NCBI GenBank assembly: GCA_964355135.1
Contig: CAYHCG010000003.1
Location: 72,783 to 136,782, forward strand
Direction of reading: 5' to 3'
Origin: Candidatus Woesearchaeota archaeon
GTDB lineage: Archaea; Nanobdellota; Nanobdellia; Pacearchaeales; GW2011-AR1
Length of the DNA: 64,000 nucleotides
Shown here in pieces: positions 39,679 to 58,400 of this stretch; positions within the stretch are counted from its first letter, which is position 1; the number at the start of each line of letters is the position of its first letter. The translations under genes were made by a program, and so were the position numbers. Below the pieces are notes generated by a model. That model saw only the letters and a list, made by a program, of their open reading frames with translations, made no database searches and was not told where the DNA came from.

Positions 39679-41670
39679 CTACTGAATCATCTGCTGATTC
39701 TTAATAACATCAGCAGCATCTTTATTATGCGCTAAATATCCTTCTGCATAATAAGTACTTGATCCACTAACATCTAAGTTATACACTTCAACACTTCCCT
39801 TTACTTCTTTAATAGACAATATGACTTGCTGTCCAGTTTCAGTCTTCAAGCTATCTCCTACTTTAGCGGTCCCAATCTCCGCCCATTTACCATTAACCAT
39901 CATCGGATGATTTGGAGTGACCTTTAATTTTCCATTTATCAATAAATAAGAGTCTGCCACACGACTATATAATTCTGTTACCTTGTTGCTTTCCATACTA
40001 TTACTCGCTTCGTTATAACTTACGACAACATCTCCTTCTTTAATATCTTTGATCATCACTTTTCCATTCGTTGTAGTAATCATCGTATCAGGTAAGAAGC
40101 ACGTTCCGCTAACTGGAGGATTCTTTACACAAGCACCCCACTGACAAGTTGAACTACATATTTTAGTTCCAGCTGCTCCCCCGCCAGCATTACAATTTGT
40201 TTTCTTTCCAATTGGTTCACAACCCTCTCCAACTTCTAAAATTCCATTTCCACATACAGGAGGAGGTTGCTGGAAGCAATATAGATGATTTGGAGTCGTA
40301 CAAGCAGCAATACCACCATGATTAGTCCAATTAAAATTAACTCCAGCAACTAAACCGTTAGAACCATAAACCGATGATAAGCTTGAAAGCCAATTTCCAC
40401 AATCACTACTAAAACCACCACCAAAATTAAAATGATTTCCACTTGCATCTGTCCCTGTCCAAGCTAGATTATTATTATCTAAGAGCCCTCCATATTGAGT
40501 CATATTTATTGAATTATCTAAAGATCCATCAATCAAATCATTCCAATTATCAGCGACTATTTTATTGCCACCATTAGCACTAGTACCTACAGTTCTATAT
40601 GGAACTGTAGAATGATATAATCTGGAATTTGGAGAATTACCTAAATTATCACTTATCCAAGCTCTCCAAGTTCCTCCTAAACCAGCTGCATTCGCACCCA
40701 TTTGACATTTCGCATCAGCACCTGCAACTCCTCCAAGATTCCCATTATATACTTCACTTGTTACAAAAACTAAATATCTAGGTTCATTTGCACAACTTGA
40801 ATCGCATCCGTCTCCTGAAACCAAGTTGTTATCATCACATTGTTCTGTACCCTCAGTCACACCATTTCCACAAATCTGAGTAAGAGGACAATCCTGAATA
40901 CAAGTTTGAGAGTTTTCTCCACCTCCTTGATTTGAACAAATTCCATCACCACAACTTACAGCTTGACAATTATTACTACATACGTCTAAATCTTCTTCAT
41001 TCCCATCATCACATACTTCTCCAGGACTAACACAACTATCTCCGCAAATATTATTCTGAACAATTACTGAAGTTGGAACTATATCAGAAGTCACTGCATC
41101 TCCCATGGTATAAACTCCGCTAAATGAATTAGAACCAATTAACGCAGAAGCTGTTGGTTTAACACTATAAGAATATTGGGCAGAAGGTATTGTTGTCGGT
41201 GGAACTGCCTGGCTATATTTAACAATTTTCATTTTTCCAGGCGTTTGAGTATTAACATCCGCTCCAGTACTAACGACACTCCAACCCGCAGGTAAACTAT
41301 CCTCAACGACATAAAACATATATTGATTACCAGTATTAACACTAAAATCAACATTAATAGGACAATCAACCCCAACAGAACTTGCACTTAAAGTCCTTGT
41401 AACCATATCGATAGGAGATAAATCAGGTGAAGAAACACAACTACCTAATTTAAAAATTCTATTCAAAATACTTTCACTTCCAACAAACATACAACCGTTC
41501 ATCTTCTCGCATTCTTTCTGCGAACACCATGCTCCATCGCTACATTGCTGACTACAAAAATCTTCTTGAGCACTAGCATTAGAAGAAATAGTAATTAAAA
41601 TTGCAAAAAATAAAGTTACAAAAATGTAAAACTTACCCCTTCCCTCTTTTTTCATTGTTCTATTTATCAT
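39679..41670 (-). CDS. secreted Cys-rich DUF11-like + DUF1554-like protein ending in a Hint autoprocessing domain
   Basis: Signal peptide, EDSLPAGWSVVS sandwich, and DUF1554-like block at 40270-40779. C-terminal CFLPDT ... TPNHP ... VYNL ... AHN. The start may be the internal MKKEG. Confidence 0.85.
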   Translation of the reverse strand: MINRTMKKEGRGKFYIFVTLFFAILITISSNASAQEDFCSQQCSDGAWCSQKECEKMNGCMFVGSESILNRIFKLGSCVSSPDLSPIDMVTRTLSASSVGVDCPINVDFSVNTGNQYMFYVVEDSLPAGWSVVSTGADVNTQTPGKMKIVKYSQAVPPTTIPSAQYSYSVKPTASALIGSNSFSGVYTMGDAVTSDIVPTSVIVQNNICGDSCVSPGEVCDDGNEEDLDVCSNNCQAVSCGDGICSNQGGGENSQTCIQDCPLTQICGNGVTEGTEQCDDNNLVSGDGCDSSCANEPRYLVFVTSEVYNGNLGGVAGADAKCQMGANAAGLGGTWRAWISDNLGNSPNSRLYHSTVPYRTVGTSANGGNKIVADNWNDLIDGSLDNSINMTQYGGLLDNNNLAWTGTDASGNHFNFGGGFSSDCGNWLSSLSSVYGSNGLVAGVNFNWTNHGGIAACTTPNHLYCFQQPPPVCGNGILEVGEGCEPIGKKTNCNAGGGAAGTKICSSTCQWGACVKNPPVSGTCFLPDTMITTTNGKVMIKDIKEGDVVVSYNEASNSMESNKVTELYSRVADSYLLINGKLKVTPNHPMMVNGKWAEIGTAKVGDSLKTETGQQVILSIKEVKGSVEVYNLDVSGSSTYYAEGYLAHNKDAADVIKNQQMIQ
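39724..40101 (-). other. Hint (intein/BIL/hedgehog-type) domain, 126 aa
   Basis: Block A: C524-F-L-P-D-T. Block B: T-P-N-H-P. Blocks F/G: VEVYNLDV...YYAEGYLAHN. Followed by K and only 13 more residues. Confidence 0.8.
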
Positions 41671-41689: not shown

Positions 41690-43330
41690 TCATGGACACG
41701 TTGGATTCTGCAAATCAATCAAGTAGGTTTTAATTGATCCAGAAATTTGAGTAATTTCAGTATAATCTATATAATATTTTCCAATATAATTTTCTAATTC
41801 AGCTTGACTAACGCAACCATTGCAAATATTTCCAGATAATAATCCGTCTGCCCCATTATTGCAATTAGTCGCCCCAATAATAACTTCTACGCCGCTAGAA
41901 TTAAAATTCCTAACTGTGAATATCTCTTGACCTATAAAATCTACAAATGGTTTATCGGGTCTTACGACTACGTCAAATTCGTCATTCAAAGGAGTATTGT
42001 CTAATAACTGTGTATCTGATTTAAACCCTCCAGATCCGTACAGTTCATTAATATGCAAAAATACTCCTCCATAAACTTCTAGTCCGTATAACTCGGGTAA
42101 ATAAAAATCATAACCTGTTGGTCTTCTATATTCTAAGTAATAGGAATATGGCCCGTCGTATGCGATTTTAATTGCCTTTGTTCCTCCAGAAATTTCTAAA
42201 GGAGTTATAAAATAAATTCCCCCTGTTGGATTGTTAATAATTTGGTTTGGATTTAACCAGCCAAGTTTTTCTTTATGAATTGCACTAAAATGACCTTTAG
42301 GCGTTGAATTACCCATAACATCAAATTGGTCTCCATAATTAATTGTATCACAACCATTAAAAGGTAAATATATATGGTCCCCCAAACAATCAAGATAATC
42401 CGCATGGTCTAACTTATAATTATGCCCAAGTTCATGAGCTATTGTAAAATCCCATCCATTTGGACCATCAAGATTCACAGTCCCAAATTTTGTAATTCCA
42501 TCAGCAGTAGAACGAGAAAATTCTCCCAAGTCGCTAATCGCCGCCCATGCTGGACAAATATCCCTTCCCCATGCAATAATTAGATTATCTACTTCTAGCC
42601 AATTGATATTATTGTTTATTGTAGGATCATTAATAATAAAATCTCGTAATGGATTTATTGAAGAACCAATACTACAAACAATATCTGAATTAAAAGGAAA
42701 GGTAATATATTCTGGGTAAATACTGTAATTTAACGACATCTGGTTATATGAATTCTCCTTATAATAGCTATTTATATCATTCATCAAAATTTCAGCATCT
42801 TCTTCACTTAAAAAATCAGTTTGATCATCTAAAAATTTCACCCTAAAGAATGTAACATTTTTCACCCCTACAACTGGAACAGGAACAACAAACTGTTGAC
42901 TATTTCCAATTAAACTAAAATCCTTAACATCTACCTCATTTTCTCCATTAACAGAATTTTCTTTTAATATTCCACTAACACTTATTTGCATTCCAGAAAC
43001 TAAATTCATATTTTCAGGCACCGAATTTAATCTATAACTGCCCTCTTGTGTTCTTATTGAATAAAGATATTCAACGAAACCTTTTTGAATATCCTCCCTA
43101 ATAACTACCTCAAGTTCTCCCTCAAAATTCTCAATATTTTCCAAGTTTTCACCTTCAACATTTTCATTTCTTCCATCTAATTTCTCAATAATATCTTCTC
43201 CATAAATAATCCTTTCATTTCTATAAAATCCTAAAATAATATTAAAAAACATTAAACTAATTAAAATTAAAACAATCACCCTTCTTTTCATCCAATAATC
43301 AATCTTCATCCATTTAAAATTCTTTCTCAA
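41690..43330 (-). CDS. secreted M11-like metalloprotease with EF-hand/dockerin-like tail
   Basis: HELGHNYKLDH, YYLEYRRPTGYD, and the tail VSQAELENYIGKYY. The likely true start is MKRRVIV at 43291, which fits TATA-N20-ATG. Confidence 0.8.
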   Translation of the reverse strand: MRKNFKWMKIDYWMKRRVIVLILISLMFFNIILGFYRNERIIYGEDIIEKLDGRNENVEGENLENIENFEGELEVVIREDIQKGFVEYLYSIRTQEGSYRLNSVPENMNLVSGMQISVSGILKENSVNGENEVDVKDFSLIGNSQQFVVPVPVVGVKNVTFFRVKFLDDQTDFLSEEDAEILMNDINSYYKENSYNQMSLNYSIYPEYITFPFNSDIVCSIGSSINPLRDFIINDPTINNNINWLEVDNLIIAWGRDICPAWAAISDLGEFSRSTADGITKFGTVNLDGPNGWDFTIAHELGHNYKLDHADYLDCLGDHIYLPFNGCDTINYGDQFDVMGNSTPKGHFSAIHKEKLGWLNPNQIINNPTGGIYFITPLEISGGTKAIKIAYDGPYSYYLEYRRPTGYDFYLPELYGLEVYGGVFLHINELYGSGGFKSDTQLLDNTPLNDEFDVVVRPDKPFVDFIGQEIFTVRNFNSSGVEVIIGATNCNNGADGLLSGNICNGCVSQAELENYIGKYYIDYTEITQISGSIKTYLIDLQNPTCP

Positions 43331-43400: not shown

Positions 43401-44687
43401 TCACTGCAAAAGCCATTTCCATAAAGGCACAAACTTAATTCCATTTTCCGTCTTCTCAATATTTTTTGTCAAAATTATCATTTCTTTTGTTTTTATATAA
43501 AAGGACTTAAATTTTATTAAAGCATTAATTTCTCTTTCATCGATATCATCACTATAAGTAACATTTAAAGCAGTTAAAGAGCTGTCAGAATTTTTTATAA
43601 CAAAATCTACTTCCTCCTGTTTTTCACTTTTCCAATAATAAACATCTTTTTCTTCCCTTCTCAACTTTAAAAAAACCAGATTTTCAGCTAATTTTCCTTC
43701 ATCTTTTGAGAACTTGAAAGAGACAGAATTTCTAAGTCCATTGTCAATACAATAAATTTTTGATGCCGAAGTTTTCTGTTCTTTTAAAGAATATGAAAAG
43801 TGATCCAATGTAAAAAATAAGTATGCCTCTTTAAAATAAGAAATATAATTCTTTATTGAATCATAAGATATACCTAAAGAATTTCTTAGATTTCTTAATG
43901 ATGTTAAAGAAGTAAAATTGGTAATTAAATATAACGCAAGATCTCTAGTTTTCTGGCTGTTTAAATTGTTTCTATCTATTATATCTTTATATAAAATGTC
44001 ATCAAAATACTGTTTCAATAACTTAGATTTATATGTTTCTTCTTTAAAGAATATCTCTGGAAATCCTCCAATTTCAAGATAATTTTTAAAATTTTTAATT
44101 ATCTTTCTCTTCGTTTCTTCTAGTACAATCCCTTTAGAATGTTTTTCTTTATCAATTTCAATATCTCCAAATACAAGATACTCTTCAAAATTTAAAGGAA
44201 ACACTTCAAAAGTTAAGTTTCTCCCCGTAAGAAGAGTTGAATACTCCTTTCTAAGTAAATAAGAACATGAACCTGAAAGAATAAATTTTTCATCGCTTCT
44301 TTGGTCGTATTTTTTTCTTACCCATGATTCCCAATCTTCTTTTTTATGTATCTCATCAAGAAATACATATGCTTTTTTATCTGAATTTATATTTTCCCTA
44401 TAACTATCATAAATACTCTCTAGAGAGTCTTGACTTAGTTTTTTATCATCAAAATTAATAAATAATATTTGTTTTGGTTCTATTTCATCCTCTAAAAGTT
44501 TTTTAATCATTTGGTACATGAGCGTACTTTTCCCACTTCTCCTTACTCCTAAAATTATGGTTATTTCCCTAATGTTTATAGAATTGATTAAAGAATCATA
44601 AGCCGGCCTATGTTTTCCCGTTAATTTGTCAACTAATTCTTTCTTTATCCACCAAGGGTTCCATTCATTAAGTTTTTCTATTTCCAT
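43401..44687 (-). CDS. AAA+ ATPase of the AAA_14 + DUF4143 (COG1373) type
   Basis: NPWW N-terminus, Walker A GVRRSGKST, Walker B VFLDEI. C-terminal E-VDFVI nuclease-like motif. Confidence 0.88.
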   Translation of the reverse strand: MEIEKLNEWNPWWIKKELVDKLTGKHRPAYDSLINSINIREITIILGVRRSGKSTLMYQMIKKLLEDEIEPKQILFINFDDKKLSQDSLESIYDSYRENINSDKKAYVFLDEIHKKEDWESWVRKKYDQRSDEKFILSGSCSYLLRKEYSTLLTGRNLTFEVFPLNFEEYLVFGDIEIDKEKHSKGIVLEETKRKIIKNFKNYLEIGGFPEIFFKEETYKSKLLKQYFDDILYKDIIDRNNLNSQKTRDLALYLITNFTSLTSLRNLRNSLGISYDSIKNYISYFKEAYLFFTLDHFSYSLKEQKTSASKIYCIDNGLRNSVSFKFSKDEGKLAENLVFLKLRREEKDVYYWKSEKQEEVDFVIKNSDSSLTALNVTYSDDIDEREINALIKFKSFYIKTKEMIILTKNIEKTENGIKFVPLWKWLLQ

Positions 44688-44760: not shown

Positions 44761-46281
44761 TCAGCATCCGTCTAAATAATCCATAATATCATTAGACAAT
44801 TGACCAATATCCCTTGCCCCAGTATAATATTGAGAAATATAACCATTTAATGTATCTTGATTTATACATTGTGTACATGAATCAGTTTGTTCATTGCACG
44901 TCAGTCCGGCACTGCAAGGATCTGCGCTATCTTGGCATCCCAATGTTGTGTTACATATCTCATTTCCGTTGCAAAAATTATTGTCTGAACAATCTGCATC
45001 GTTTGTGCATGCTTCGCAATTTATTTTAAAAATAGAAGCAGAACCCGCATCAGGACCATTAATGTTGTCATCCCAATATGCTCCGCCTATAACTTGGTCA
45101 TCAGAAACACCTACTGAAAAACCGAAATATTCATTTGTTGCACCATTAGGAGCCAATAATTTAGCTTCTTGATTCCATTCTAAACCATTTTCACGAAAAA
45201 CATATACTGAACCTGATTGGCTACCTTGATCATTATCTTTATATGCACCGATTGCAACCAAATTATTTGAAATTGCAACAGATGAACCAAAATAATCGTT
45301 TATAAATCCATCCGAAGGCCAAAGTTCAGATTCTTGAACCCAACGTTCACCCTCAATTCGCTCAGGATGATACCGATAGACATAAGCTGAGCCGAAGCCC
45401 AATCCTCCACTGTTATCTTGATAAGCGCCAACTATAGCTTTATTTTCAAAAATAGCTACTGAATAACCAAAAAGATCATTAGCCATGCCTTCGATGGCCA
45501 ATAACTTCTGTTCTTGAACCCAGTTATATCCATCAAAATGAAAAACATAAGCAGAGCCAGCAGCGTTACCCAGATCATCATCAGCATAAGCTCCTATCAA
45601 AATATTATCGCTATCTATACTTACAGAGTATCCGAAGTTGTCTCCCCCAGCTGCATCTTCAGCCACTAAATTTTGCTCTAAAACCCAAGATGTACCATTA
45701 AACCTATACACATAAGTCGAGCCAGCTTTGTAAAGAGCTGGAGAAGGAGAATACTGATGAGCCCCTATAATAATAACGCTACCAGATATGTCGATAGAAC
45801 TTATCTTTCCATTACTACCTACACTGTACCTGGCCTCCAAAATTTGTTGTTCATTCCAACTCGTACCATTCCAATTAAAGATATAAACTGCCCCAGCTTG
45901 GCCATTGATATAATGATTCGGTGCACGAACTACGGCTGTATTGCCCTCAATTGCTACAGACGTACCAAAGGCGTCATAGGCTCCTTGATCTGAACCAAAA
46001 AGCTTCTGTTCTTGAATCCAATTCGAACCACCCCTACGAAATATATATGCCGAACCAGATTGTACTCCTTTATCACCATCCAATCTAGCCCCAACGATTG
46101 CTACATCACCTGAAATAGCCACTGAGTAGCCGAAAAAATCCGAAGCCGCACCATGCGAAGCCACAAGTTCAATCCCATCACTCACAGAGCAAGTGCTTTG
46201 AGCAATCGCAACTTCACTACTTAAAATAAATGTCGCAAATAATATTATAAAAACTAAAATCATCCCCTCTCTTTTCATCAT
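44761..46281 (-). CDS. secreted FG-GAP (integrin-alpha-like) beta-propeller protein with Cys-rich module and tail
   Basis: About eight repeats of FG.SVAI.G...IVGA..D.....GSAY[VI]F. C-terminal Cys repeat and LNGYISQYYTG tail. Confidence 0.85.
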   Translation of the reverse strand: MMKREGMILVFIILFATFILSSEVAIAQSTCSVSDGIELVASHGAASDFFGYSVAISGDVAIVGARLDGDKGVQSGSAYIFRRGGSNWIQEQKLFGSDQGAYDAFGTSVAIEGNTAVVRAPNHYINGQAGAVYIFNWNGTSWNEQQILEARYSVGSNGKISSIDISGSVIIIGAHQYSPSPALYKAGSTYVYRFNGTSWVLEQNLVAEDAAGGDNFGYSVSIDSDNILIGAYADDDLGNAAGSAYVFHFDGYNWVQEQKLLAIEGMANDLFGYSVAIFENKAIVGAYQDNSGGLGFGSAYVYRYHPERIEGERWVQESELWPSDGFINDYFGSSVAISNNLVAIGAYKDNDQGSQSGSVYVFRENGLEWNQEAKLLAPNGATNEYFGFSVGVSDDQVIGGAYWDDNINGPDAGSASIFKINCEACTNDADCSDNNFCNGNEICNTTLGCQDSADPCSAGLTCNEQTDSCTQCINQDTLNGYISQYYTGARDIGQLSNDIMDYLDGC

Positions 46282-46346: not shown

Positions 46347-49300
46347 CTACAAATAAACATCTAATGCGTTTGATAAATCGTTAATATTAACATTCCCCGC
46401 ATAATATCCATTAATATAATTAGTAATTTCATTGCTTTCTATGACGCCATTACAATCTCCATAAGGAGCGGTATCTGCGCCGGTATTACAACTAATTACT
46501 TGACACTGATCAATTGCCTCATTACAAGTTTGCGTTGAGGGATTGCAAGGTAGTATTCCAGAAACACATTTATCTACATCCGTCACATTAGTAGGATCAC
46601 AAATCTCCGTTCCGTCACAGAATAATCCATTGGAGCATAAAGCATTGTTAGAGGTGTGATCAATGCGATCAAGAGCTTCATCGCAACTATCTACAGTACA
46701 AGCAATATTATCATTTATATTTGGAGCGGTTCCTGCCTGACATCTCTGATTCGCATTGCAAGTTTCTACACCATTGCAATAATTATTATCGTTGCAATTA
46801 ATATCATCATTACATGTCAATCCAAATTCTACAACTGGATTTTTATCTGAATTCATTGTAACAAAGCAATGAATCCCATTAACAATGTTACACCCGCTCC
46901 ATGAAGTAAATGTAAATCCTGGATTAGAATCAATGGTTGCAGTTAAATCTACTGTTCCTGAAGCATAACTCGCAGAACAAGTCGGCCCACAATTAATTCC
47001 TGCAGGATTTGAAGTAACAGTCCCTCCTAATATCCCAGTTTTATTTACTGTCAAAATAAATCCAGATGAAGGAAGAACAGTTAAGGTAAATGAAGTCGTT
47101 CTAGTTATTCCTCCTGCAGTTCCATTAACATAAATAGTATGAATGCCTAAAGGTGTTGATGCCCCTGCGCTAATTGTCATTATAGTACTGCAAACAGTAT
47201 TTGGAATACAGTTAGTTGGGTTAAAACTTGCAGTTACTCCGCTAGGCAAATTGTATGCCAAAAATGAAACAGTTTGTGTCGTTCCAGAAACTAAATTAGC
47301 AGTTATCGTCGTTGAATTTGAATTCCCTCTTGCAACGCTTCTAGATCCAGAATTAGTAAGAGAAAAGTCAATAGGAGAGAAGCTGTTAAAAGTTGCAATA
47401 GGATTTCTATTACCATTCATATTCGCTGTACATACATTACCATTCACACTATCGCATCCGCTCCAAGAACCAAGTACATATCCGCTAGCGGCATTAGCTG
47501 TTAATGTTACAGGAGTATTTGCATTGTATGCTTCAGTGCAGTCGTTTAGAGTGCCGCTTCCACATGATATTCCTGTTCCGGTTATATTTCCCTGTCCAAT
47601 TACAGAAGTAGTTAGAGTAAATTGCTGAATAAACGTAGCAGTAGGATTAGCTGATGAACTTACTATACAATTTCCCGTTCCACTACATCCATTACTCCAT
47701 CCTGCAAACATATACCCACTTGCAGACATCGCTGTCAAGTTTACAGTAGTTCCTTGATTAAATGTTGCAGTGCAAGTAGCTCCACAATTGAGTTGACTTG
47801 CCTGATCAGGATTGCTTGTTGATGTAACTGTTCCCTGCCCAATTTTATTCACACTTACAGTATAACTTGAACTTGGATTAACAGTCATAGTAAAAATTCC
47901 TGATTTGGGAGCAACTCCTGAGCCAGAACTAGTGTCAATGTGGTTTACTGTATGAATTCCTGTTTGTGCAGAAGCCATGGCAGAATAAGTAAATGTTACT
48001 GTGCATGTTGTTGGTGTTGGCGTACATGTTTTATTATTACCACCGATCAAACTAACCCCACTAGGCAAGCTTCCAATATTTACACTAACTGGTAGGTCTA
48101 ATATGCTAAACGTCTCCGATATAGTCACTGTTTGCGATGTAGTACTACCTTGAGTTAAAGATATGGGAGGGGCACTTACGAAATAATCCATAAATATTGG
48201 TAAGTCAAATACAGCTACGACACTCCTGTTAGAATCCATATTCATAATACAAAGAGTGTCTGGAAAACCAATCTCATCGCACCCAAAGTAAACGTATTTG
48301 CTTCCTGCACTTGCATTAGCAGTTAATCTCGCCTGGGATCCAAAAGGATAACTGGCATTACATATATCTCCACAATTAATACTGATAGGGTTGCTCTTAA
48401 CTGTTCCTGTTCCACTGCCTATTTTGTTTACAGTTAATGTGTGGTAGCCAGATAAGAGTTGGCATGAATTTGTTGTTTCATCACAAGTATACCTAGAGGG
48501 ATTGCAGGAATCAGTATTATCCATGCAACCTTGAGCTGCAGTGCATATTTCACTGCCATCACAATATAATCCATTATCACATAAGCTATTTTGAGCAACA
48601 TGAGAACAGGACCCTGCATTGCAAATATCCTGAGTACAGCTAAATCCATCATTGCAATCAGCATTTTGCGTGCATTGTACCACATTACCGGCGGTAAATT
48701 TAACTTCTAAAGCAGGCCTAATTTCTCCATTCGCTGGATCAGTCAACGAACTCCATAATGAGATTCTAAGATCAGTATAAGGTTCATCAGGCATTGTATA
48801 AACATCATATCCTGCCCTCATACCTAAAGTGCTGTATCCTGTTTTATTTATATAATTAAGACCGATTGGATTAAATGTAAAAGTAATTTTATCCCCTGCC
48901 AATTCACTTATATCAACCCTATTTGCAAGTTCTACTGGGTTATCGACAGAACTGAATTTACTAAAATCGTCCGCCTGTAAAATGGGAGGATTTGTAATAT
49001 TAACAGGCACTAAAGTTATAAAATCATATGAAGCTGGATTAGTATTGAGAATAACCCCTGCTTTAGTAAGATTCAACTTAACAGATTGTATTAAAGCATT
49101 GTCAGGTATTGATGAAGTATCAAAAGAAATAGAAATTCTCTTTAAACCTTTTACTCCAGTAACGTTATACACATTGAACAGGTAGAGAGTATCGTACGGA
49201 GCCCCTACAACTCCGGTTTGTGCATTTCTTAAAGTATCCCAATTCGGTGCACTGTTTTGTGATTTAAATATTTCCGCTGCACCCGGGTAAGCTTCAACCT

Positions 49301-51098
49301 TTAAAGTGCATGTTCCATCTGGATTAATTGTATTTCCCTCTCCACATATAGGATCGACGCAAGATGAAGTATCAAATCTGCATGAAGAGTCGCAAGATAA
49401 AATTCCTCCCTGCCTATATCCAAGGCCATGACAACTCTCTCCACTAAAATTGATTCCATCACACTCCTCCCCACTGTCTAACTGGTTATTTCCACAAAGA
49501 AAATCACCCACTTCAATTTCTGCATAATCCTCAGTTAAATTTAATAGTCTTATACTTATATCATGATAAGGATCAAAAAAAGTTTCTCCGACCCTTAAGG
49601 CAACATCTGCCCTATAGTATCCTCCATCCCCTCCAACAGGACGCATATCGATAATATTTGTCATAGTATTTGAGTAATAATGATCATTACGAATTAATAC
49701 TCCGTCATAAACATCTAGTCCAATACCTGAAATAATAGCATCGTAACCAATTGATCTGCGATATTCTACATAATAATTATTGTCATAATAAATACTTCCA
49801 GTACCGGGGATAGGTATTTTCAGTGACTTTACCCCATTAGTATTTGTCTCAAGCGGTTCAATACGGTGTATCCCTTGGCTTGTTTGCAAAATTTGCGAAT
49901 ATTCAAGCCAACCCATATTTACTTTGTTGAACGCACTATAATGTCCTTTAGAGCTCCCCATAGTATCAAAAACATCTCCATAACCTCCCCCCAAACAGCC
50001 ATCATCATTTCTGATAACATCATCAAAGCAGTTTAGATATCCCGCATGTAAAAGTCCAAAATTGTGACCTAATTCGTGAGACCCAGCCCCATTTTCTATA
50101 AAATGCGGACCATTCAACATCATAGTACTCCATTCGGTTCCATTAAATAGTGCGGCTCCACTCATGTTTCTGAACGTATGCTTGCCTAAAGAAGCACCTC
50201 CAGCCATATTACAAGAAGAGTCCAGAGGAGTAATTATAATAATTCTGTCATATTGCATAATATCAACATGCTCTTGTACTAAAGTAAGATTCCAACCATA
50301 ACAAACACTGGTTATAGAATCTGTATACCATCCAAATACGTCTCCGCTAAGCCAAGTTTTCCCGCCAGAAACTTCCTGCACCCAGCTATTGAGAGAATCA
50401 GGCATTCCAGTCAACCCATCATTCTCATTATAATAACTTTCATTAAACATTCTGTCCCATACTTCTTCTCTTGTCATCGGTTCTATAAGGTTATCATATC
50501 TATTTATTAATACGACAACCACTTTCTGCTCCCCTAAATTATCTGCCTGCGTACCCGCAACTCCTCCCTCATTTATAACTTCAAATAATTGAACATCAAT
50601 TGTTTCATCTCCAGAAGCAACATTGCTAAAAGTTCCAGTAACTTCAATAGTTACTCCAGAAATTATATTGGGTTCTTGTCCTTGCGCAAAATTTAATTTG
50701 TATTGAGCTCCTTGCTCTGTCATTAAATGATATTCAAAATAAGAGTTTTCAGGATTATCAAAATCATCAAAAACCTTAACTAAAGAAGTGCCAGATAAGG
50801 TAACAGTTTCTCCAGGGTTGAAGAAGATATTTTCTGAACTATCAACTTTATCATCATTACTAAAACCAAAAAAATCTTTTACATCCTCCCAAAAACTATT
50901 TTCAGTTACTCCATTCAACTTTGTACTCTCTTCTCTCCCTTCATAGACACTAAAACCATTTACACTAAATTTAAAGATACCTAAAATAATAATTATTCCA
51001 ATTAATAATATCAAGGATACATAAAAAATATTTCTTTTCTTCCCCACCCCCCTTTTCATCCAATAATCAATCTTCATCCATTTAAAATTCTTTCTCAA
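46347..51098 (-). CDS. giant secreted M11-like metzincin with DNRLRE-like sandwich, InlB-B-repeat-like modules, Cys-rich repeats and tail
   Basis: HELGHNFGLLH; repeats such as TLTVNKIGSGTGTVKSNPISINCG; tail VIESNEITNYINGYYAGN. The likely true start is MKRGVGKK at 51059. Confidence 0.85.
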   Translation of the reverse strand: MRKNFKWMKIDYWMKRGVGKKRNIFYVSLILLIGIIIILGIFKFSVNGFSVYEGREESTKLNGVTENSFWEDVKDFFGFSNDDKVDSSENIFFNPGETVTLSGTSLVKVFDDFDNPENSYFEYHLMTEQGAQYKLNFAQGQEPNIISGVTIEVTGTFSNVASGDETIDVQLFEVINEGGVAGTQADNLGEQKVVVVLINRYDNLIEPMTREEVWDRMFNESYYNENDGLTGMPDSLNSWVQEVSGGKTWLSGDVFGWYTDSITSVCYGWNLTLVQEHVDIMQYDRIIIITPLDSSCNMAGGASLGKHTFRNMSGAALFNGTEWSTMMLNGPHFIENGAGSHELGHNFGLLHAGYLNCFDDVIRNDDGCLGGGYGDVFDTMGSSKGHYSAFNKVNMGWLEYSQILQTSQGIHRIEPLETNTNGVKSLKIPIPGTGSIYYDNNYYVEYRRSIGYDAIISGIGLDVYDGVLIRNDHYYSNTMTNIIDMRPVGGDGGYYRADVALRVGETFFDPYHDISIRLLNLTEDYAEIEVGDFLCGNNQLDSGEECDGINFSGESCHGLGYRQGGILSCDSSCRFDTSSCVDPICGEGNTINPDGTCTLKVEAYPGAAEIFKSQNSAPNWDTLRNAQTGVVGAPYDTLYLFNVYNVTGVKGLKRISISFDTSSIPDNALIQSVKLNLTKAGVILNTNPASYDFITLVPVNITNPPILQADDFSKFSSVDNPVELANRVDISELAGDKITFTFNPIGLNYINKTGYSTLGMRAGYDVYTMPDEPYTDLRISLWSSLTDPANGEIRPALEVKFTAGNVVQCTQNADCNDGFSCTQDICNAGSCSHVAQNSLCDNGLYCDGSEICTAAQGCMDNTDSCNPSRYTCDETTNSCQLLSGYHTLTVNKIGSGTGTVKSNPISINCGDICNASYPFGSQARLTANASAGSKYVYFGCDEIGFPDTLCIMNMDSNRSVVAVFDLPIFMDYFVSAPPISLTQGSTTSQTVTISETFSILDLPVSVNIGSLPSGVSLIGGNNKTCTPTPTTCTVTFTYSAMASAQTGIHTVNHIDTSSGSGVAPKSGIFTMTVNPSSSYTVSVNKIGQGTVTSTSNPDQASQLNCGATCTATFNQGTTVNLTAMSASGYMFAGWSNGCSGTGNCIVSSSANPTATFIQQFTLTTSVIGQGNITGTGISCGSGTLNDCTEAYNANTPVTLTANAASGYVLGSWSGCDSVNGNVCTANMNGNRNPIATFNSFSPIDFSLTNSGSRSVARGNSNSTTITANLVSGTTQTVSFLAYNLPSGVTASFNPTNCIPNTVCSTIMTISAGASTPLGIHTIYVNGTAGGITRTTSFTLTVLPSSGFILTVNKTGILGGTVTSNPAGINCGPTCSASYASGTVDLTATIDSNPGFTFTSWSGCNIVNGIHCFVTMNSDKNPVVEFGLTCNDDINCNDNNYCNGVETCNANQRCQAGTAPNINDNIACTVDSCDEALDRIDHTSNNALCSNGLFCDGTEICDPTNVTDVDKCVSGILPCNPSTQTCNEAIDQCQVISCNTGADTAPYGDCNGVIESNEITNYINGYYAGNVNINDLSNALDVYL

Positions 51099-51102
51099 TC
51101 AC
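51052..51102 (-). promoter_or_regulatory. 51-nt segment identical to 43284-43334, directly after the ATPase stop
   Basis: Same sequence. The ATPase stop codon (51099-51101) lies inside the identical block. Confidence 0.6.
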
Positions 51103-52382
51103 TGCAGAAGCCATTTCCAGACTGGAATTAGTTTTATTTTCTTCCCTTCAATATCTATACTTTCTTCTTCATCCAGAGTTATTATAATTCCTTCTTTAAG
51201 TTTAAATTTGTTTAATGCTTCAAATAATCCATTTACTTCCCGTTGTTTATTATCCATTGTAATTTTTTCACTCACTTGAATTGCCTCAACTATCTTTTCT
51301 TTTTCCAAAATTAGAAAATCACATTCATGATTATCCCTGTTATAAAATACCTTTTTACCTTTTCTCCTAAGTTCTAAAAAAACAATATTTTCAAGCAGTT
51401 TACCTCTATCTTCTGAAAATTTAAAACTTATTGCATTTAACATTCCATTATCTATAAAATATACTTTTTTTATCGAACCAAGCTGTTTTCCTAAGGAATA
51501 TTCATATTTTAAGTTCTGAAAGAAAAGATAGGCATCTTCAAAATAAGAGATATATTCAATAATTGTATTCTTGCTTGTATTCATACCCATAGATTTCAAT
51601 TTATTAGCAAGATTATTATAAGAAATATCTTTTGAAACAGATTCCATTAATAAATTTGCTAGTATTCTTATTTTCTTTACATCTTCTATTTTGTGCCTTT
51701 CAACAAGATCTTTAAAAATCATAGATTCATAATAGTTTTGCAAAATTTCTTCACTATTTACTTTCTGGAAAATTAAAGCAGGATACCCTCCATCTTTAAT
51801 ATAAGCATTAAATAACTTCTTAATTTCTATCCTATCATTACTATGTGGTAAAGTTCTAATATCATATTTTATCTTTTTCCAGCTGACAATTTCCTTAAAG
51901 CTTAATGGAAAGATTTCTTTATTGAGAACTCGTCCCCGTAATGTTGTTGATATTTCCTTGCTAAGTAATTTCGAACTTGAACCAGTAAGAACAAATTTAA
52001 TTTTCTTGTTTACATCATGAAGTTTTCTAACCCAAGAATCCCAATTTTTTACATTTTGTATTTCATCAAGAAATAAATATATCTTCTGATTTTTATTTAT
52101 ATCGTAAAGTTCAAAATAAGCCTGGAGAAGTTTTTCTAAATCGTCTGAATCTGCTCCAATAAGTTTATTATCTTCAAAGTTTATATATAAAATGTTCTCC
52201 CTTCCAACATTATTTTTAATTAGATCTTGCATAATTTGAAAACATACAAATGTCTTTCCTGCTCTTCTAGGTCCAGATATTGTAGTTATAAAATCTCCAT
52301 CTAAACTTATGTCATGGCTCCTGCTAAAAAGCTGGGGAATTTCAAATTCTTTCCAATTAGTTATTATTTCTTTATGATTCAT
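51099..52382 (-). CDS. AAA+ ATPase of the AAA_14 + DUF4143 (COG1373) type, paralog
   Basis: Walker A GPRRAGKT, Walker B LFLDEI, E-CDFLI motif. Same C-terminal VWKWLLQ as the 43401 paralog. Confidence 0.88.
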   Translation of the reverse strand: MNHKEIITNWKEFEIPQLFSRSHDISLDGDFITTISGPRRAGKTFVCFQIMQDLIKNNVGRENILYINFEDNKLIGADSDDLEKLLQAYFELYDINKNQKIYLFLDEIQNVKNWDSWVRKLHDVNKKIKFVLTGSSSKLLSKEISTTLRGRVLNKEIFPLSFKEIVSWKKIKYDIRTLPHSNDRIEIKKLFNAYIKDGGYPALIFQKVNSEEILQNYYESMIFKDLVERHKIEDVKKIRILANLLMESVSKDISYNNLANKLKSMGMNTSKNTIIEYISYFEDAYLFFQNLKYEYSLGKQLGSIKKVYFIDNGMLNAISFKFSEDRGKLLENIVFLELRRKGKKVFYNRDNHECDFLILEKEKIVEAIQVSEKITMDNKQREVNGLFEALNKFKLKEGIIITLDEEESIDIEGKKIKLIPVWKWLLQ

Positions 52383-52463: not shown

Positions 52464-55400
52464 CTACAAATAGACCCCTAAAGCATTCGACAAATCGTTA
52501 ATATTAACATTCCCCGCATAATATCCATTGATATAATTAGTAATTTCATTACTCTCAATCACACCATCGCAATCTCCATAAGGAGCGGTATCTGCGCCGG
52601 TATTACAAACAACATTTTCACAAATATCGGTCTGCTCGTCACACGTCAGTCCGGCACTGCAAGGATCTGCGCTATCTTGGCATCCTTGCGTAGTACTGCA
52701 ACTTTCACTTCCGTCACAGAATAATCCATTGGAGCATAAAGCATTGTTAGATGTATGATTAATTCTGTCATTTGCTTCATCGCAACTATCTACAGTACAA
52801 GCAATATTATCATTTATATTTGGAGCGGTTCCTAACTGGCAATGCCCATTTCCAAGATTGCATGTTTCTGCACCATCACAATATAAATTATTACTACATT
52901 CACTATCTTGACCGCACTCTTTTGTATATTCCCAAACTGGATTCTTGTCTGAATTCATTGAAGTTATAGAACAAAGAGTTGGATTTGAAGCACTGCACCC
53001 GCTCCATGACATAATCGAGAATCCAGGAACAGAATCAGGGTACGCATTTAAAACAACTGGCGTGTTAGGAGCAAAACCTCTTGAACATGTGGAACCACAA
53101 TTTATTCCCCCCGTAGTTGAATTCACCATTCCAGTATAAATCCCCGTCTTATTTACCGTCAAAACATAACCTTGAGTAATGTTTAATGCAAATGTTGTTG
53201 TTTTTGTGACTAATCCACTTGTCCCATTTACATAAATAGTATAAGTTCCAGATACAGAAGGTACACTAGTAGACAAAGTCAAATTAGTTGAACAAACAGT
53301 ATTAGGCGTGCAACTAGCAGGAGTAAAATTCGCACTCACACCAGCAGGCAAACCATAAGCTAAAAACGAAACACTCTGCGGAGTACCAGTAATGAGCGTT
53401 GCATTGATAAGCGTAGTATTTGAATTTCCTCGTATAACTTTTCGTGTTCCTAAATTTGATAAACCAAAATTAAATGAATTATCTATAAAATTAGCAGTTA
53501 ATAAAGTTGGATTATTTGTCCTATTTACAGTGCACAAGTTTCCATTTTCAACAGGACAACCCGTCCAAGAAACAAAGCTACTTCCAGACATAGCTGTTGC
53601 ATTTAATAAAACTGTTTGAAATGTTTCAAAGGAATATGTACATACCCCAGGACAATTTATTCCTGTTGGGGTTGAATTTATTATTCCATTTCCCGTTCCT
53701 GCTTTCGCAACATTTACTGTATAAATCGAAATAGAATTTGAAAATGTTGCACTAACTGATTTCGAGGCATCCATTGTCACAACACAACTTCCTGTTCCGC
53801 TGCATCCCCCGCCCCATTCAACAAATGTCCACCCTTCTAAAGGTGTTGCAGTTAATGCAATTAAAGTACCTGTATTGACTGTTTCGCTACAATCCCCAGT
53901 TGATCCAGTTAAACAACTAATTCCGTTTCCAGTTATATTTCCAGATCCGATAACTGATGTTGTCAAAGTAAACTGTTGAATATTAAAGGTAGCATTTACA
54001 GTTTTAGCAGAATTCATAGTCACATTGCATAAAATATTTCCAGGCCCATAAACACTATTGCATCCAACCCAACCAGCAAATGTATTTCCAGGAGAGGCAG
54101 TTGCATTAAGAGTAACATTTGCATTTACTTTAAATGAAACATTTTGATTTAAACAAATAGCACCACATCCAATCTGATTTACCTGACTTGGAATACTTGT
54201 TGAATTTACAGTTCCAGTCCCAGTTCCTTTTTTGTTCAATGTCAAATTATAATTCAATTGATTTACAGTTAAGGTAAATGAGGTAGTATTAGTTAATCCT
54301 CCACTAGTACCGTTTACATAAATTGTATAAGTTCCAACAGGAGTAGAAGCACTAGTTGTCAAATTTAATATTGTTGAACATGTTGGATTACAGCTTGTAG
54401 GAATAAATGAAGCCGTTGTTCCAGGAGGCAACCCATAAGCCAAGAAAGACACAGCTTGTGTCGCACCAGAAATAAGCGTTGCATTTATTATATTTGTTAC
54501 GTTTGACCCCTGAATAACAGTTCTAGATCCATTATTAGATAGATTAAAATTAAATGAAGATAAAGTAAATGTAACATTAACTGTCTTCCAATCATTCATA
54601 GTCACATTGCATAAATTATTTCCTAGTCCATAAACAACACCACATCCAGTCCAGCTAGTAGAATATCCGCTAGAAGGATTTGCTATTAAAGTTACAACTG
54701 AATTAAAATTATAATCGAAATAATCTTCTTGACAAGTCAGACCGCAATTTATTCCGCTAGGATTACTTGTAACTGTTCCACTAGAAGCAGCACTTTTTTT
54801 ATACAACTCCAATGTTGGTTTTTCAAAAGACACATACACTGTACGATTCACATATAAAGTAACATTACATCTATTCCATGTAGAAGGATTATGATCTTGA
54901 TATAAATTATCACAACCTAAATAATAAGCTACATAATAATTTACTGGAGAAGTAAATAATAAACTCACATTTGTTCCATTATTAAAAATTCTAGTTTGAT
55001 AATCACAATTACTGCCACAATTAAACTGATTCCCATTATCTGGAACACTTGTTGAAGTAACCGTTCCATTAACTACTCCTTCCTGCCATAATTTTATCTG
55101 GAATTGCCTTACTGCGGATGTTGTAGAGAAATTCGCAATTACATTCTTATCTGAAGTCATTGTTACATTGCATAAGCTATTTCCTGGTCCAAATACAGAA
55201 TTGCATCCGGTCCAATTTACAAATGTACTTCCAAAGTCAGGATAAGCAGTTAAAGTCACATTTGTATTTGGGAGATATGTGTAGTTGCAAATTGTAGGGC
55301 AGCTGATAATCGTATCACTACTGAATACATATCCGTCCCCAGCGCCGATTCTGTTTACAGTTAAATTGTATCTAGGAATAGGTGCGAAAGTAGCATTTAC

Positions 55401-58400
55401 ATTCTTATTTGAAGTCATACTTACATTGCAATATATATTCTCAGGACCATAAACAACATTGCATCCTTGCCATCCAGTGAAGGTATTATCAGCATCAGCA
55501 AATGCTATCAATGCCACATTTGTATTTGGGAGATATGTGTAGTTGCATGTTGTACCGCAATAAATCAAGAAATCATCGCTATAAATAAGTCCGCCCCCAG
55601 TTTTGTTTACAGTTAAATTGTATCTAGGAATAGGTGCGAAAGTAGCATTTACATTCTTATTTGAAGTCATACTTACATTGCAATAAATATTTCCTGGTCC
55701 AAATACAGAGTTGCATCCAACCCAACCAGCAAATGTACTTTCAGTGAAAGCAGTGGCATTTAAAGTTACATTGGTATTTTGAAGATAGGTATAATTACAA
55801 TTTAATCCGCAATTGATAGTAAAGTCTTCACTTGTAACAAATCCCGTTCCGCTGCCAATTTTATTTACAGTTAAATTGTATCTAGGAATAGGCATGATAA
55901 AATTAGCCGTAGTTATTGTATGGTAAGTCATATTTATGCTACAAACATTTCCATAATAGAAATCACAATAACTCCAACCAGCAAATTCATGCCCGGCATA
56001 AGGCACAGCAGTTAAATTTACTATAGAACTATGATTAAATGTAAAGTTTTGTGATATGCAACTAGGCCCACAATTAATTCCTATCGGATTACTTGTGATA
56101 GTCCCGTTTCCATTTCCCTCTTTTGTAACATTTAAATCTGGTTTTTCAAATACAACTATAAGATTATTATCTTGATCCATAGTCATATTACATATGTTAT
56201 TTACCGAATCAAATGAATAACAATTTCCAGAATATCCAAAATACACTCCGCTTCCAGAATTAAATTTAATTGTTATATTTGCATTTCTATCAAATGTATA
56301 ATTTTGATTTTTGCAATTCGTCCCGCAAATCAAATTTCCAGGGTTAACTATTGTAATTCCGGTTCCGGTTCCATCTTTAATTAAAGTTAAATTAAAAGTA
56401 GCAGGATAGTTAAAAGTTGCATTTACATTCTTATTTGAAATCATAGTTACATTGCAGAATACATTGCCAAGCCCATAAACAACATTGCATCCTTGCCAAC
56501 TAGTAAATGTACTTCCTGCATCAGGATAAGCAGTCAAAGTAATATTTGTAAAATGATTAAATGTATTATTACAAGTTAGCCCGCAATTAATCAAAAAATC
56601 ATCGCTAACTATAAATCCTGTTCCACTTCCTGTTTTATTTACTGTTAAATTAAATTTAGGAACCAATAAATTAAAGTTAGCAATCACAAAACTAGGAACG
56701 AGAATATTAACTTGACATACTCCAATACCAGAACAAACTCCTTCCCATCCGCTAAACTCATATCCTACAGAAGGAAAAGCAGTTAAATTTATAGTAGTAC
56801 TTACATTAAAATTAAGATCTTGTGACAGACAACTCACATCGCAATTAAAGTTGGTTTGGTTTGGGCTGCTTGTCGAGTTTACAATTCCTAAACCATTACC
56901 TGACTTAGTCAGATAAAGTGTAGGCCTGTCAAAATAAGCAACCACAGATCTAGCAGAACTCATAGTCACATTGCATATAAGATTATACCCCATGTAATAA
57001 AATGAATCGCAATTATCCACTATATTCAAAGGAAAACCGCTTCCAGAAAAGAAAGTCAAACTAACATTAGCATTTCTGTTGAAAGTCGCATTTTGGTTTA
57101 GACATCCGATCCCACAATTTATTCCAGCAGGAACGCTTACCGCCGTTCCTGTTCCTGTTCCTGCCTTAGTTAAAGTCAAATTATAGAAAGGTGGAGGAAG
57201 ATTAAAATTTGCAACGACCATAGTATTAGAGTTTATTACAAGATTGCACACTCCAACCCCTGAGCAAGCTCCCGACCAACCCGTAAAGTCGTACCCTGGA
57301 CTAGGCACTGCAGTTAAACTAACTTGTGCTCCTTCACTAAAAGTAGCATTCTGAGATAAGCAACCTGTCATACAACTTATTCCTGCAGGAATGCTAGTAA
57401 CATTTCCCGTGCCAGTTCCAGCTTTATTCACGGTTAAATTATAGGGTCCGCCATTACCAGGAGGACTTCCACTTACACAATTACTAGTATCGATAAGGCA
57501 CCCATAACAGTTCAAGAATCCACTTGAATATGAGGGATTATAACTTTTGCAAGAAGCAGATTCTCCCATTCCAAAATTATATTCGTCGCACTGTTCTTCA
57601 TCTTCTAAATATCCATTACCACAATATCCCAATCTTATCGGAGATACCAAATAAAATCTTGATCTATTAGGATTTGTAGGAGGGACTAAAGTTATAAATT
57701 CAAACCTAGCTTCACCTATTAATCTTTGACTTAATCCACCAATAATCAACCCATATTTAGTTGCCCCTGTTGTATTTTTTACACTAAAATTGCCTGCCCT
57801 TTCTACATAAGTTATTCCCTCAAAAGAATAATTAGTAATATTAATTAAAGTAATATTGTAACCATTTCTAATTATGGATTTAGAGATATTCAATTCTACA
57901 AGATTTGTAAAATTCTCGCAATAATTATTACAGTCCGCTCCACCGTCACATTGTTCAGTTCCTTCCTTTATTCCGTTTCCGCAAAGGACATCAAAATTAA
58001 AATTGGGTGAAACAGTTAAATTAAAGTAAGTTTTTCTGCTCTCTCCACCCATAGTTCCGGTTACATTTATTTTATAAACTCCAGTCGAAGCTGATGTCAA
58101 TGAACTTATATTCATCCTTGTAATACATGTAGGGTTGCAACTTGTTGGAGAGAATGTTGCACTTACTCCGCTAGGAAGGCCACTTACAGAAAAAGCAACA
58201 GGAAATACAGAACCATCCCAATAAATTGCAGTGATGTTATTTATTACAGAAGACCCCTTATAGACTGTTTTATCTCCATTATTTGTAAGTGAAAAATTCT
58301 GCTCTCTTACTGGCTGGCAATTGCTAAAATCGAGATTGCAAACTGAATTACAGTTTAAATTTCCATCGATATAACTTGGGTGATAATTTAAACATGTTTG

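Follow-up and report, generated by a model that had tools for sequence, protein, structure and literature searches.

A C-terminal module on exported proteins of DPANN archaea and candidate phyla radiation bacteria is a predicted truncated relative of dockerins

Six proteins encoded in a 64,000-nucleotide stretch of the genome of a Candidatus Woesearchaeota archaeon (GenBank assembly GCA_964355135.1, contig CAYHCG010000003.1, positions 72,783 to 136,782; the whole stretch is called the window below) have different bodies and end with short tails that resemble each other. The locus raises the question of what the tail is and what it could do at the ends of such different proteins. The preliminary description of the window proposed that it is an EF-hand- or dockerin-like tag for docking, sorting, or assembly. 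The profile comparisons reported here identify the tail as a truncated, disulfide-stapled relative of dockerins, which is missed by current domain libraries and is widespread in DPANN (Diapherotrites, Parvarchaeota, Aenigmarchaeota, Nanoarchaeota, as well as Nanohaloarchaeota) archaea and in bacteria of the candidate phyla radiation (CPR). The tail may dock its carrier proteins to a binding partner, either in the envelope or on a host.

Both DPANN archaea and CPR bacteria occur in great abundance; most of them have not been cultured, and they are thought to live attached to other cells. To our knowledge, little has been established about what decorates the surfaces of these cells and how the decoration is retained there. 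The module described here marks a large and heterogeneous set of exported proteases, lectin-like proteins, and adhesins in both groups.

A family of homologous C-terminal tails

The six window tails form the last 38–57 codons of six long open reading frames (ORFs) on the minus strand, and each of them reaches the stop codon (Table 1). The start of tail 3 was moved upstream to a cysteine, which is a better boundary than the 44764-44877 segment delimited earlier. In the alignment, the other tails are 30–38% identical to tail 1, and the mutual identity among the window tails is only about 34%, with tails 4 and 5 being near-identical. A profile hidden Markov model (HMM) built from the six tails and searched against the six-frame translation of the window matched only those six, and the next ORF scored 5.7 bits. 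This test is circular, and leave-one-out HMMs were therefore calculated, with the near-identical pair removed together. Every omitted tail was the best non-training match, with E-values of 5.8e-10, 2.4e-9, 1.7e-8, and 2.3e-5 for the tails omitted singly, and 3.9e-8 and 1e-5 for the pair from carriers 4 and 5, whereas the next ORF had E-values of 0.45–3. Judged from this recovery, the six tails share a common ancestry and do not reflect a chance pattern, and the common tail reported in the preliminary description holds at its original positions.

The six-tail profile was searched exhaustively with hmmsearch against 1.84e9 representative proteins. The search returned 74 matches at E<=1e-3, including 12 at E<=1e-10; six of the 74 are proteins with repeat or EF-hand arrays, and about 68 are true. 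About 62 of the approximately 68 true matches end no more than 7 residues from the C-terminus of the carrier. The carriers are 37–1570 residues long, and most of the full-length carriers from outside the window begin with a signal-peptide-like segment. Their bodies include DUF4215, Laminin_G_3, CBM9, reprolysin, beta-helix, FG-GAP, lipase/abhydrolase, Glug, PKD, and polysaccharide lyase domains. Genomes of GTDB species were scanned with an IUPAC pattern made by hand from the family, which gave one match in the window against zero expected. The pattern detected 91 loci, and an HMM of 52 family tails identified 139 copies of the tail in 90 of them, 120 of which lie within 8 residues of a stop codon. 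As the pattern favours canonical loops, tails like those of the window are under-sampled, and the genome counts are minimum values. A word-indexed homologue search with the tail alignment returned nothing, the query being too short for the index, and no nucleotide similarity was detected between the window and any of the fetched loci. The tail is a mobile module that occurs at the C-termini of unrelated bodies far beyond the paralogs of the window, to which, as the preliminary description had considered, it might have been confined.

According to the record titles, the archaeal carriers belong to Woesearchaeota, Pacearchaeota, Nanoarchaeota, Altiarchaeota, and unclassified archaea, and the bacterial carriers to Patescibacteria/CPR (including ones from the same Hainich wells), Planctomycetota/Pirellulales, and a few other bacteria. 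The CPR labels are backed by neighbouring ORFs, namely an Obg-like GTPase and C-terminal ends that read as peptidoglycan-binding-like. A single 1.84-Mb Woesearchaeota chromosome contains at least 32 copies of the tail, often three per 8 kb. In Planctomycetota, a G-[RH]-Y-Y-W-D-E extension comes after the module (loci L007, L018, L019, L037, L052, and L053). Several metagenome-assembled genomes titled 'uncultured Methanosarcinales archaeon' (CAZPXC, CAYXZQ, CAYMIF, and CAZSMA) carry many tails, together with genes that are closely orthologous to housekeeping-type ones on the Woesearchaeota chromosome OY970338.1. Because of these shared orthologues the Methanosarcinales label is doubtful, and either this label or the Woesearchaeota label of OY970338.1 is probably wrong.

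Anatomy of the module and its relation to dockerins

The module consists, from the N- to the C-terminus, of a cysteine, a 12-residue EF-hand-type loop (A-D-T-N-C/S-D-G-x-V-x-x-x-E), two 17-residue units, and usually a terminal Gly-Cys. The consensus of the 52 family tails is C-N-x-x-A-D-T-N-C-D-G-x-V-x-x-x-E-L-x-x-Y-I-x-x-x-x-x-G-x-x-x-I-x-x-L-x-x-A-I-x-x-W-x-x-G-C. The two units, with the consensus sequences x-I-S-I-S-E-L-I-N-Y-I-S-Q-W-K-S-G and S-V-T-I-G-D-L-I-D-A-I-G-K-W-K-N-G, each end in a helix; the window lineage has Y-Y and Y/H-L at the positions of the consensus W-K. The units constitute a tandem repeat that starts downstream of loop position 6. In a set of 159 tails, the comparison of unit 1 to unit 2 yielded a BLOSUM62 score of +33 with 6.7 of the 17 residues identical, whereas shuffled sequences scored -15 +/- 10 and all other registers between -11 and -24. 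The window tails have the repeat in the same register, although it is weaker (scores of 9 to 14, and -1 for tail 6). The second unit retains only positions 7–12 of a loop; the duplication is clear, with the full Ca2+ loop restricted to unit 1.

The canonical loop A-D-x-N-x-D-G-x-[IV]-x-x-x-E is present in 34 of the 52 family tails, whereas in the window only tail 1, that of the beta-helix protein, has it. Its loop reads D-A-N-S-D-G-T-V-S-Q-T-E, as had been claimed, and contains the only set of ligands in the window that follows the pattern. The idea of an EF-hand Ca2+ loop does not extend to the other five tails: the loops of tails 4 and 5 are interrupted by an APYG insertion, in tails 2 and 3 loop positions 1, 3, 5, or 12 are lost, and the loop of tail 6 is largely deleted, as is the loop in the tail of a CAP-like protein encoded on the related contig L094. 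With an intact loop in just one window tail, Ca2+ binding is not the conserved property there. Judging by the six sequences, the Ca2+ loop is decaying in the window lineage. Since only one of six tails has the loop intact, and that of the CAP-like protein has lost most of it, the lineage can probably dispense with Ca2+ binding, and its tails probably depend on disulfides for their stability instead.

Cysteines occupy four sites in the module: ahead of the loop (a), at loop positions 4 (b) and 7 (c), and in the terminal Gly-Cys (d). Three classes predominate among the 52 tails, a--d (17 tails), abcd (15), and ab-- (14), and the number of cysteines is even in 49 of them. In the window, tails 1 and 6 belong to class a--d, tails 2 and 3 to abcd, and tails 4 and 5 to ab--; the pre-loop and terminal cysteines are both present in tails 1, 2, 3, and 6, which end with GC, TC, or NC. 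The three classes and the even counts are the pattern expected from one or two disulfides, and fix the boundaries of the domain. They imply that the disulfides close a compact extracellular module by tying together the N-terminal cysteine, the loop, and the C-terminus. The preliminary description had proposed that pairs of cysteines replace the Ca2+ ligands in some of the tails. This proposal was rejected, since none of the four sites is at a side-chain ligand position of the loop, and the same cysteine positions coexist with intact loops, for example in DTDCDGCVSDGE.

The AlphaFold2 (AF2) prediction based on the six-tail alignment is mediocre, with a predicted local distance difference test score (pLDDT) of 69.5. 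The 52-tail alignment gave a model with a pLDDT of 87.9 and a predicted template modelling score of 0.69, in which an ordered loop is followed by helices 23–34 and 40–52. The helices form an antiparallel hairpin, and the segment ahead of the loop is a coil and not a helix. The residues conserved in the window lineage, E-L-x-x-Y-I-x-x-Y-Y-x-G-x-x-x-I-x-x-x-S-N-x-x-x-x-Y-L, comprise the helix core and, where helix 2 begins, an S-N pair that is likely exposed.

The module stays below the cut-off of every Pfam and NCBIfam model. The closest Pfam match to a window tail was that of EF-hand_1 to tail 1 (E-value 0.011, 15.7 bits against a gathering cut-off of 25.4), and the other window tails were unmatched. 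Matches to EF-hand models were obtained for 22 of the 52 family tails, with a best E-value of 1.5e-5 and all below the gathering cut-offs. Dockerin_1 (PF00404) matched none of the six window tails even at E<=10, and one of the 52 family tails with an E-value of 0.06. The NCBIfam model of GC-type dockerins (NF041540, cut-off 29 bits) matched 7 of the 52 tails below its threshold, with a best E-value of 0.0078, and its best window match was tail 5 (14.9 bits, E-value 0.026). Three proteins recovered by the window-tail profile from the 1.84e9 proteins, P0066, P0069, and P0072, are bona fide NF041540 members (29.2–40.1 bits).

The profile of the 52 tails aligned with that of these three proteins in hhalign with a probability of 97.3% and an E-value of 2.6e-11 over 46 columns, which correspond to the whole tail. 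The six window tails alone gave a probability of 95.7% and an E-value of 1e-8, and 91% without tail 1, whereas reversed or column-shuffled templates used as controls reached no more than 1.5%. The alignment contains a single gap of 12 columns, which covers the linker between the repeats and the first half of the second Ca2+ loop; therefore, the tail has at most one Ca2+ site. The top PDB matches of the GC-type dockerin profile are cellulosomal dockerins, 2y3n_B (E-value 4e-5), 6kgc_B (6e-4, both repeats), and 1ohz_B (0.012). The tail is thus a shortened, single-loop relative of dockerins that lies below the membership cut-off of every curated family, so that the comparison with dockerin and EF-hand profiles suggested in the preliminary description finds homology to the dockerin profile and no match at curated thresholds. 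Searches of the PDB with the tail profiles themselves produced no significant whole-domain match: EF-hand loops of the calmodulin and troponin types appeared at E-values of at least 0.001, and dockerins were weak (5lxv_B at 0.04–0.23 and 6kgc_B at 1.1). A TGF-beta2 look-alike from the same searches (E-value 0.03) was dismissed as a chance match.

Like the GC-type dockerin, the tail is a C-terminal module of exported proteins with a loop-helix, loop-helix organisation, a cysteine just ahead of the first Ca2+ loop, and a Gly-Cys ending. It differs in being about 45 instead of about 65 residues long due to the missing 12 columns, in having glutamate at loop position 12, as in EF-hands, where the NF041540 members used here have aspartate, and in the extra cysteines at loop positions 4 and 7. 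A literature search on GC-type dockerins found no paper, and the function of the family is known from its name alone. With the cellulosomal type I dockerins (PF00404), to which it is linked transitively through NF041540, the tail has in common the C-terminal position on secreted hydrolases and a duplicated loop-plus-helix (F-hand) unit that has a full loop in the first copy only and lacks an entering helix. Unlike these dockerins, it has one Ca2+ loop instead of two, repeats of 17 instead of 22 residues, and disulfide staples. The loop D-x-N-x-D-G-x-[IV]-x-x-x-E followed by a helix relates tail 1 and 34 of the 52 family tails to the EF-hands (EF-hand_1, EF-hand_5, and EF-hand_6); in contrast to those, the tail has neither an entering helix nor a second EF-hand, occurs in an extracellular, disulfide-bonded context, and has lost the ligand pattern in five of the six window copies. 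Excalibur (PF05901) is a small, cysteine-containing, EF-hand-like Ca2+ loop on secreted prokaryotic proteins. Its likeness to the tail is conceptual only: the 52 tails did not match it at E<=1 in the search of all Pfam-A, its cysteines are at other positions, and it does not have the repeat helices.

Docking and the alternatives

We infer that the module has a docking function. The reading that we favour, with slightly better than even confidence, is that the tail, a self-contained extracellular module of about 45 residues related to the dockerin fold, docks its carriers onto a partner in the envelope or on the host. The module would be appended, nearly always at the extreme C-terminus, to enzymes and binding proteins exported by the Sec pathway. 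After export, it would fold independently, and a face of its helical hairpin would dock the carrier on an envelope partner belonging to the cell itself or to its host. The docking would retain proteases, lectin-like domains, and adhesins on the surface of the ultra-small episymbiotic cell. A protein with a dockerin domain was shown to be essential in a cultivated epibiont from Saccharibacteria, which belong to the CPR (PMC10633639), and a passage of PMC10066038 that cites Peer et al. 2009 refers to non-cellulosomal dockerins as proposed adhesins.

Several observations weigh against docking. No domain of the Pfam cohesin families was detected in the six carriers and the nine other window ORFs that were scanned, in agreement with the preliminary description, which had noted no obvious cohesin. 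None of the window tails reaches the curated thresholds of Dockerin_1, dockerin_GC, or the EF-hand models. Foldseek searches of the PDB with both AF2 models retrieved generic helical hairpins only (E>2.8) and no dockerin, although Foldseek has little power for a domain of 45 residues. The low mutual identity of the window tails does not make a single common binding surface obvious. The C-terminal placement has exceptions: the module follows directly after the signal peptide in a protein of an uncultured archaeon (L031), occurs as two tandem copies in P0039, and is followed by the extension in Planctomycetota. The N-terminal segments of several carriers could be uncleaved membrane anchors, in which case a tag that anchors the same protein would be redundant. 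Finally, clustering of the genes adjacent to the tail genes yielded only one recurrent family without a tail, which is DUF11-like.

The DUF11-like family nevertheless provides a possible receptor for the tail. The part of this genome available to the search for a partner was the window and 5.7 kb past its end. The domain, of about 110 residues with weak similarity to DUF11 and bMG10, has the motif VTRSFS...YxIDExIPxGW...GHIKW...YxYxV..P, and is located in the window at the N-termini of a transmembrane-anchored protein (the candidate receptor in Table 1) and of a protein that ends with a Hint domain. An HMM of the domain matched 21 of the 91 tail-bearing 8-kb loci, from DPANN, CPR, Planctomycetota, and others (for example L013, L030, L033, and L060). 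Proteins with the domain usually have a C-terminal wall or membrane anchor, and in three of them it is fused to the tail (L043, 215 residues; L066, 2351 residues; L009, 1731 residues). The domain was not found in 104 kb of Woesearchaeota tail arrays. No similarity to cohesins was detected in the N-terminal domains of the two window proteins or in a 117-residue cysteine-rich protein, all of which gave only weak DUF11, bMG10, or NEW3-like signals. The DUF11-like domain is thus a candidate lead and not a finding as a possible receptor, and the frequency of 21 in 91 is given without a background rate.

The tails may alternatively bind each other, which would join different secreted proteins into scaffold-free complexes. 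EF-hand motifs normally act in pairs, and each tail has one full loop at most; many of the tail proteins are encoded side by side, P0039 carries its two modules in tandem, and no separate receptor was found. However, within one chain the two 17-residue units already pair with each other, and the AF2 monomer is a confident closed hairpin. From the disulfide classes, the N-terminus would be packed together with the loop and the C-terminus inside one module, and tails that are about 34% identical appear too divergent for obvious mutual recognition. We consider such pairing unlikely. The same low probability is assigned to the possibility that the module is only a stabilising cap, a Ca2+- or disulfide-locked domain that protects the carrier against proteolysis or aids its folding and has no partner. 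Its presence on many unrelated bodies, in archaea and bacteria, and in dozens of copies per genome would be unexpected for a cap, and its homologues are docking modules. Resemblance among tails is 0.51–0.92 within a genome and 0.32–0.51 between genomes (0.34 against 0.23 for the window), even when the bodies differ. This likeness fits a partner specific to each genome, and equally a paralogous expansion. The window lineage also keeps the probably exposed S-N pair. In favour of a cap are the lack of an identified partner, conserved positions that are mostly cysteines and residues of the helix core (L, Y/A, I, and W/Y), and a loop that can be dispensed with without losing the module.

It is very unlikely that the tail is a sorting or processing signal, which an enzyme or secretion system of its own would remove or attach covalently, as in PGF-CTERM/archaeosortase, LPXTG/sortase, or the type IX secretion system (T9SS). 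The tail is strictly C-terminal in most members of the family and has the conserved ending G-C or N-P-x-C, as such a signal might, but the carriers already bear Sec-type leaders at their N-termini, and archaea, CPR bacteria, and Planctomycetota, which all carry the module, have no such machinery in common. The extension in Planctomycetota and the N-terminal module of L031 also argue against it. The motif, transmembrane helix, and basic tail of archaeosortase-type signals were not found in the tails, which contain no hydrophobic run and have polar or G-C ends; the scan of the tails against NCBIfam gave no match to a sorting signal, and no recurrent sortase-like family was present among the clustered ORFs of the tail loci, where a single one of the non-tail families was scanned for domains. 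Archaeosortase-type signals, which the preliminary description had already excluded because a transmembrane segment is lacking, and T9SS-type signals were rejected, the tail being helical. The view that the tail is merely left over from local gene duplication, with no modular meaning, is refuted. Carriers 4 and 5 do share the stalk and the tail, and carriers 2, 4, and 6 share a protease domain, but the tail is also found on bodies that are not paralogous (beta-helix with Laminin_G_3, FG-GAP propeller, and CAP domain) and in many other architectures from dozens of genomes of both prokaryotic domains.

Beyond the favoured docking of carriers, we speculate that the tail is the plug of an unrecognised, cohesin-independent surface-display system common to DPANN archaea and CPR bacteria. 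In this system, a minimal dockerin with one Ca2+ site or without any would attach dozens of enzymes and adhesins per genome to an envelope-anchored receptor, perhaps the DUF11-like domain, or directly to the host; this broader proposal is doubtful. If surface display or docking to a host is correct, the tail provides a handle on how ultra-small episymbionts build their attachment surface, and if its receptor is located on the host, it bears directly on the mechanism of episymbiosis. The interest of the module would be considerably greater if binding to a receptor or a host were demonstrated, and the tail is small enough to be used as a simple peptide bait for the receptor. A dedicated HMM could expose a "tagged secretome" in thousands of metagenome-assembled genomes. 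As the family illustrates, dockerins can shrink to a single Ca2+ loop or even lose it, with disulfides in its place, which is relevant to the engineering of small docking tags.

Carrier proteins and genomic surroundings

Table 1. Tails, their carriers, and other genes of the window discussed in the text. Cysteine sites are a (pre-loop), b (loop position 4), c (loop position 7), and d (terminal).
Feature	Positions	Strand	Length (aa)	Description
Tail 1	28022-28165	-	48	CESGADANSDGTVSQTELNDYAPQFYNGQITITQFSNAIIEHLSGCNN; canonical EF-hand-type loop DANSDGTVSQTE; a--d, pre-loop Cys and terminal G-C
Tail 2	41693-41863	-	57	CNNGADGLLSGNICNGCVSQAELENYIGKYYIDYTEITQISGSIKTYLIDLQNPTCP; degenerate loop; four Cys, abcd
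Tail 3	44764-44898	-	45 (from upstream Cys)	CNEQTDSCTQCINQDTLNGYISQYYTGARDIGQLSNDIMDYLDGC; degenerate loop; four Cys, abcd
Tail 4	46350-46490	-	47	CNTGADTAPYGDCNGVIESNEITNYINGYYAGNVNINDLSNALDVYL; four-residue loop insertion; two Cys, ab--, no terminal Cys
Tail 5	52467-52607	-	47	CNTGADTAPYGDCDGVIESNEITNYINGYYAGNVNINDLSNALGVYL; near-identical to tail 4; ab--
Tail 6	61808-61921	-	38	CEDVGGVDLFTLTQQYYEGQTDIAVFSNTLMQYINNCP; loop largely deleted; two Cys, a--d
Carrier 1	28019-30925	-	968	N-terminal hydrophobic leader, right-handed beta-helix, Cys-rich region, Laminin_G_3, tail
Carrier 2	41690-43330	-	546 (as listed)	M11/reprolysin-like metalloprotease (weak Pfam matches), tail; no stalk
Carrier 3	44761-46281	-	506	Signal peptide, six FG-GAP_2 repeats (propeller), Cys-rich stalk, tail
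Carrier 4	46347-51098	-	1583 (as listed)	M11-like protease region, Flg_new_2 (InlB B-repeat-like) repeats, Cys-rich stalk, tail
Carrier 5	52464-59171	-	2235	At least 10 Flg_new_2 repeats, Cys-rich stalk, tail
Carrier 6	61805-63946, off window end (64000)	-		M11 (gametolysin-like) peptidase, beta-rich domain, tail
Candidate receptor	32480-34387	-	635	Signal peptide, N-terminal DUF11/bMG10-like domain (about 110 aa), Cys-rich stalk, C-terminal transmembrane anchor; no tail
Hint-ended protein	39679-41670	-	663	Secreted; DUF4215, DUF1554/endostatin-like, PT-HINT/Hint end
AAA_14/DUF4143 ATPase gene	43401-44687	-		Directly upstream of the gene of carrier 2
AAA_14/DUF4143 ATPase gene	51099-52382	-		Directly upstream of the gene of carrier 4
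Sigma70_r4 protein	59222-61654	-	810	Cytoplasmic-looking

Five of the window carriers have an N-terminal hydrophobic leader, and the sixth has its N-terminus beyond the window end; its full length is 781 residues on L094. The preliminary description placed every tail after a cysteine-rich stalk. This applies to carriers 3, 4, and 5 only, since the tail of carrier 1 directly follows Laminin_G_3, and carriers 2 and 6 have no stalk. A search with the stalk and tail together retrieved only bacterial proteins that have the cysteine-rich CxDGxFCDGxExC stalk and lack the tail; therefore, the stalk is an independent and widespread repeat. The repeat, CxDGxFCDGxExC...DGVxCTVDxCxE, occurs in the window at about 44900-45080, 46500-46900, 52620-53000, 29100-29700, and 33400-34000. 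It is common in tail-less proteins from bacterial metagenomes, some of which are annotated as PF00526. Carriers 1 and 4 share a region past the N-terminal hydrophobic segment with the motif ...NG[LF]SVY[DE]G...W..[FV]KDFFGF (30700-30925 and 50850-51050, both on the minus strand), so that some carriers with unrelated bodies have both ends in common.

Each of the two AAA_14/DUF4143 ATPase genes is directly upstream of a tail gene of the M11-protease type, and is followed by an identical 51-nucleotide junction (near 43330 and 51098). Because of this junction, the listed TTG starts of carriers 2 and 4 (MRKNFKWMKIDYWMKR...) are probably read-through of a duplicated leader, and the methionine of MKR[RG]V is probably the real start; for carrier 2, this is the internal MKRRV....

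The island of tail genes continues past the end of the window on L094, which brings it to at least 8 tails. This part of the island (positions 1-1498 of that contig) includes a 391-residue protein with a faint match to CAP (PF00188), which ends with ...QCTTTEELNTEIGRYYTNQIGITMISNIVMEYLNGC and in which the loop is almost wholly deleted, and a partial ORF at the end of the contig, which also carries a tail. About 15 residues follow the Hint domain of the Hint-ended protein, which is a module of the self-cleaving type, and no obvious toxin cargo is present there. The Sigma70_r4 protein stands out within the island of secreted proteins, and Sigma70_r4 (E-value 2.7e-10) is its sole recognisable domain. 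The window also holds archaeal translation genes, and its cysteinyl-tRNA synthetase is 64–68% identical to proteins labelled Nanoarchaeota or Pacearchaeota at NCBI. The organism is a groundwater archaeon of the DPANN group. Proteins identical to those of the window are encoded on contigs from groundwater of the Hainich aquifer, from the 0.1-um filter fraction of well H52.

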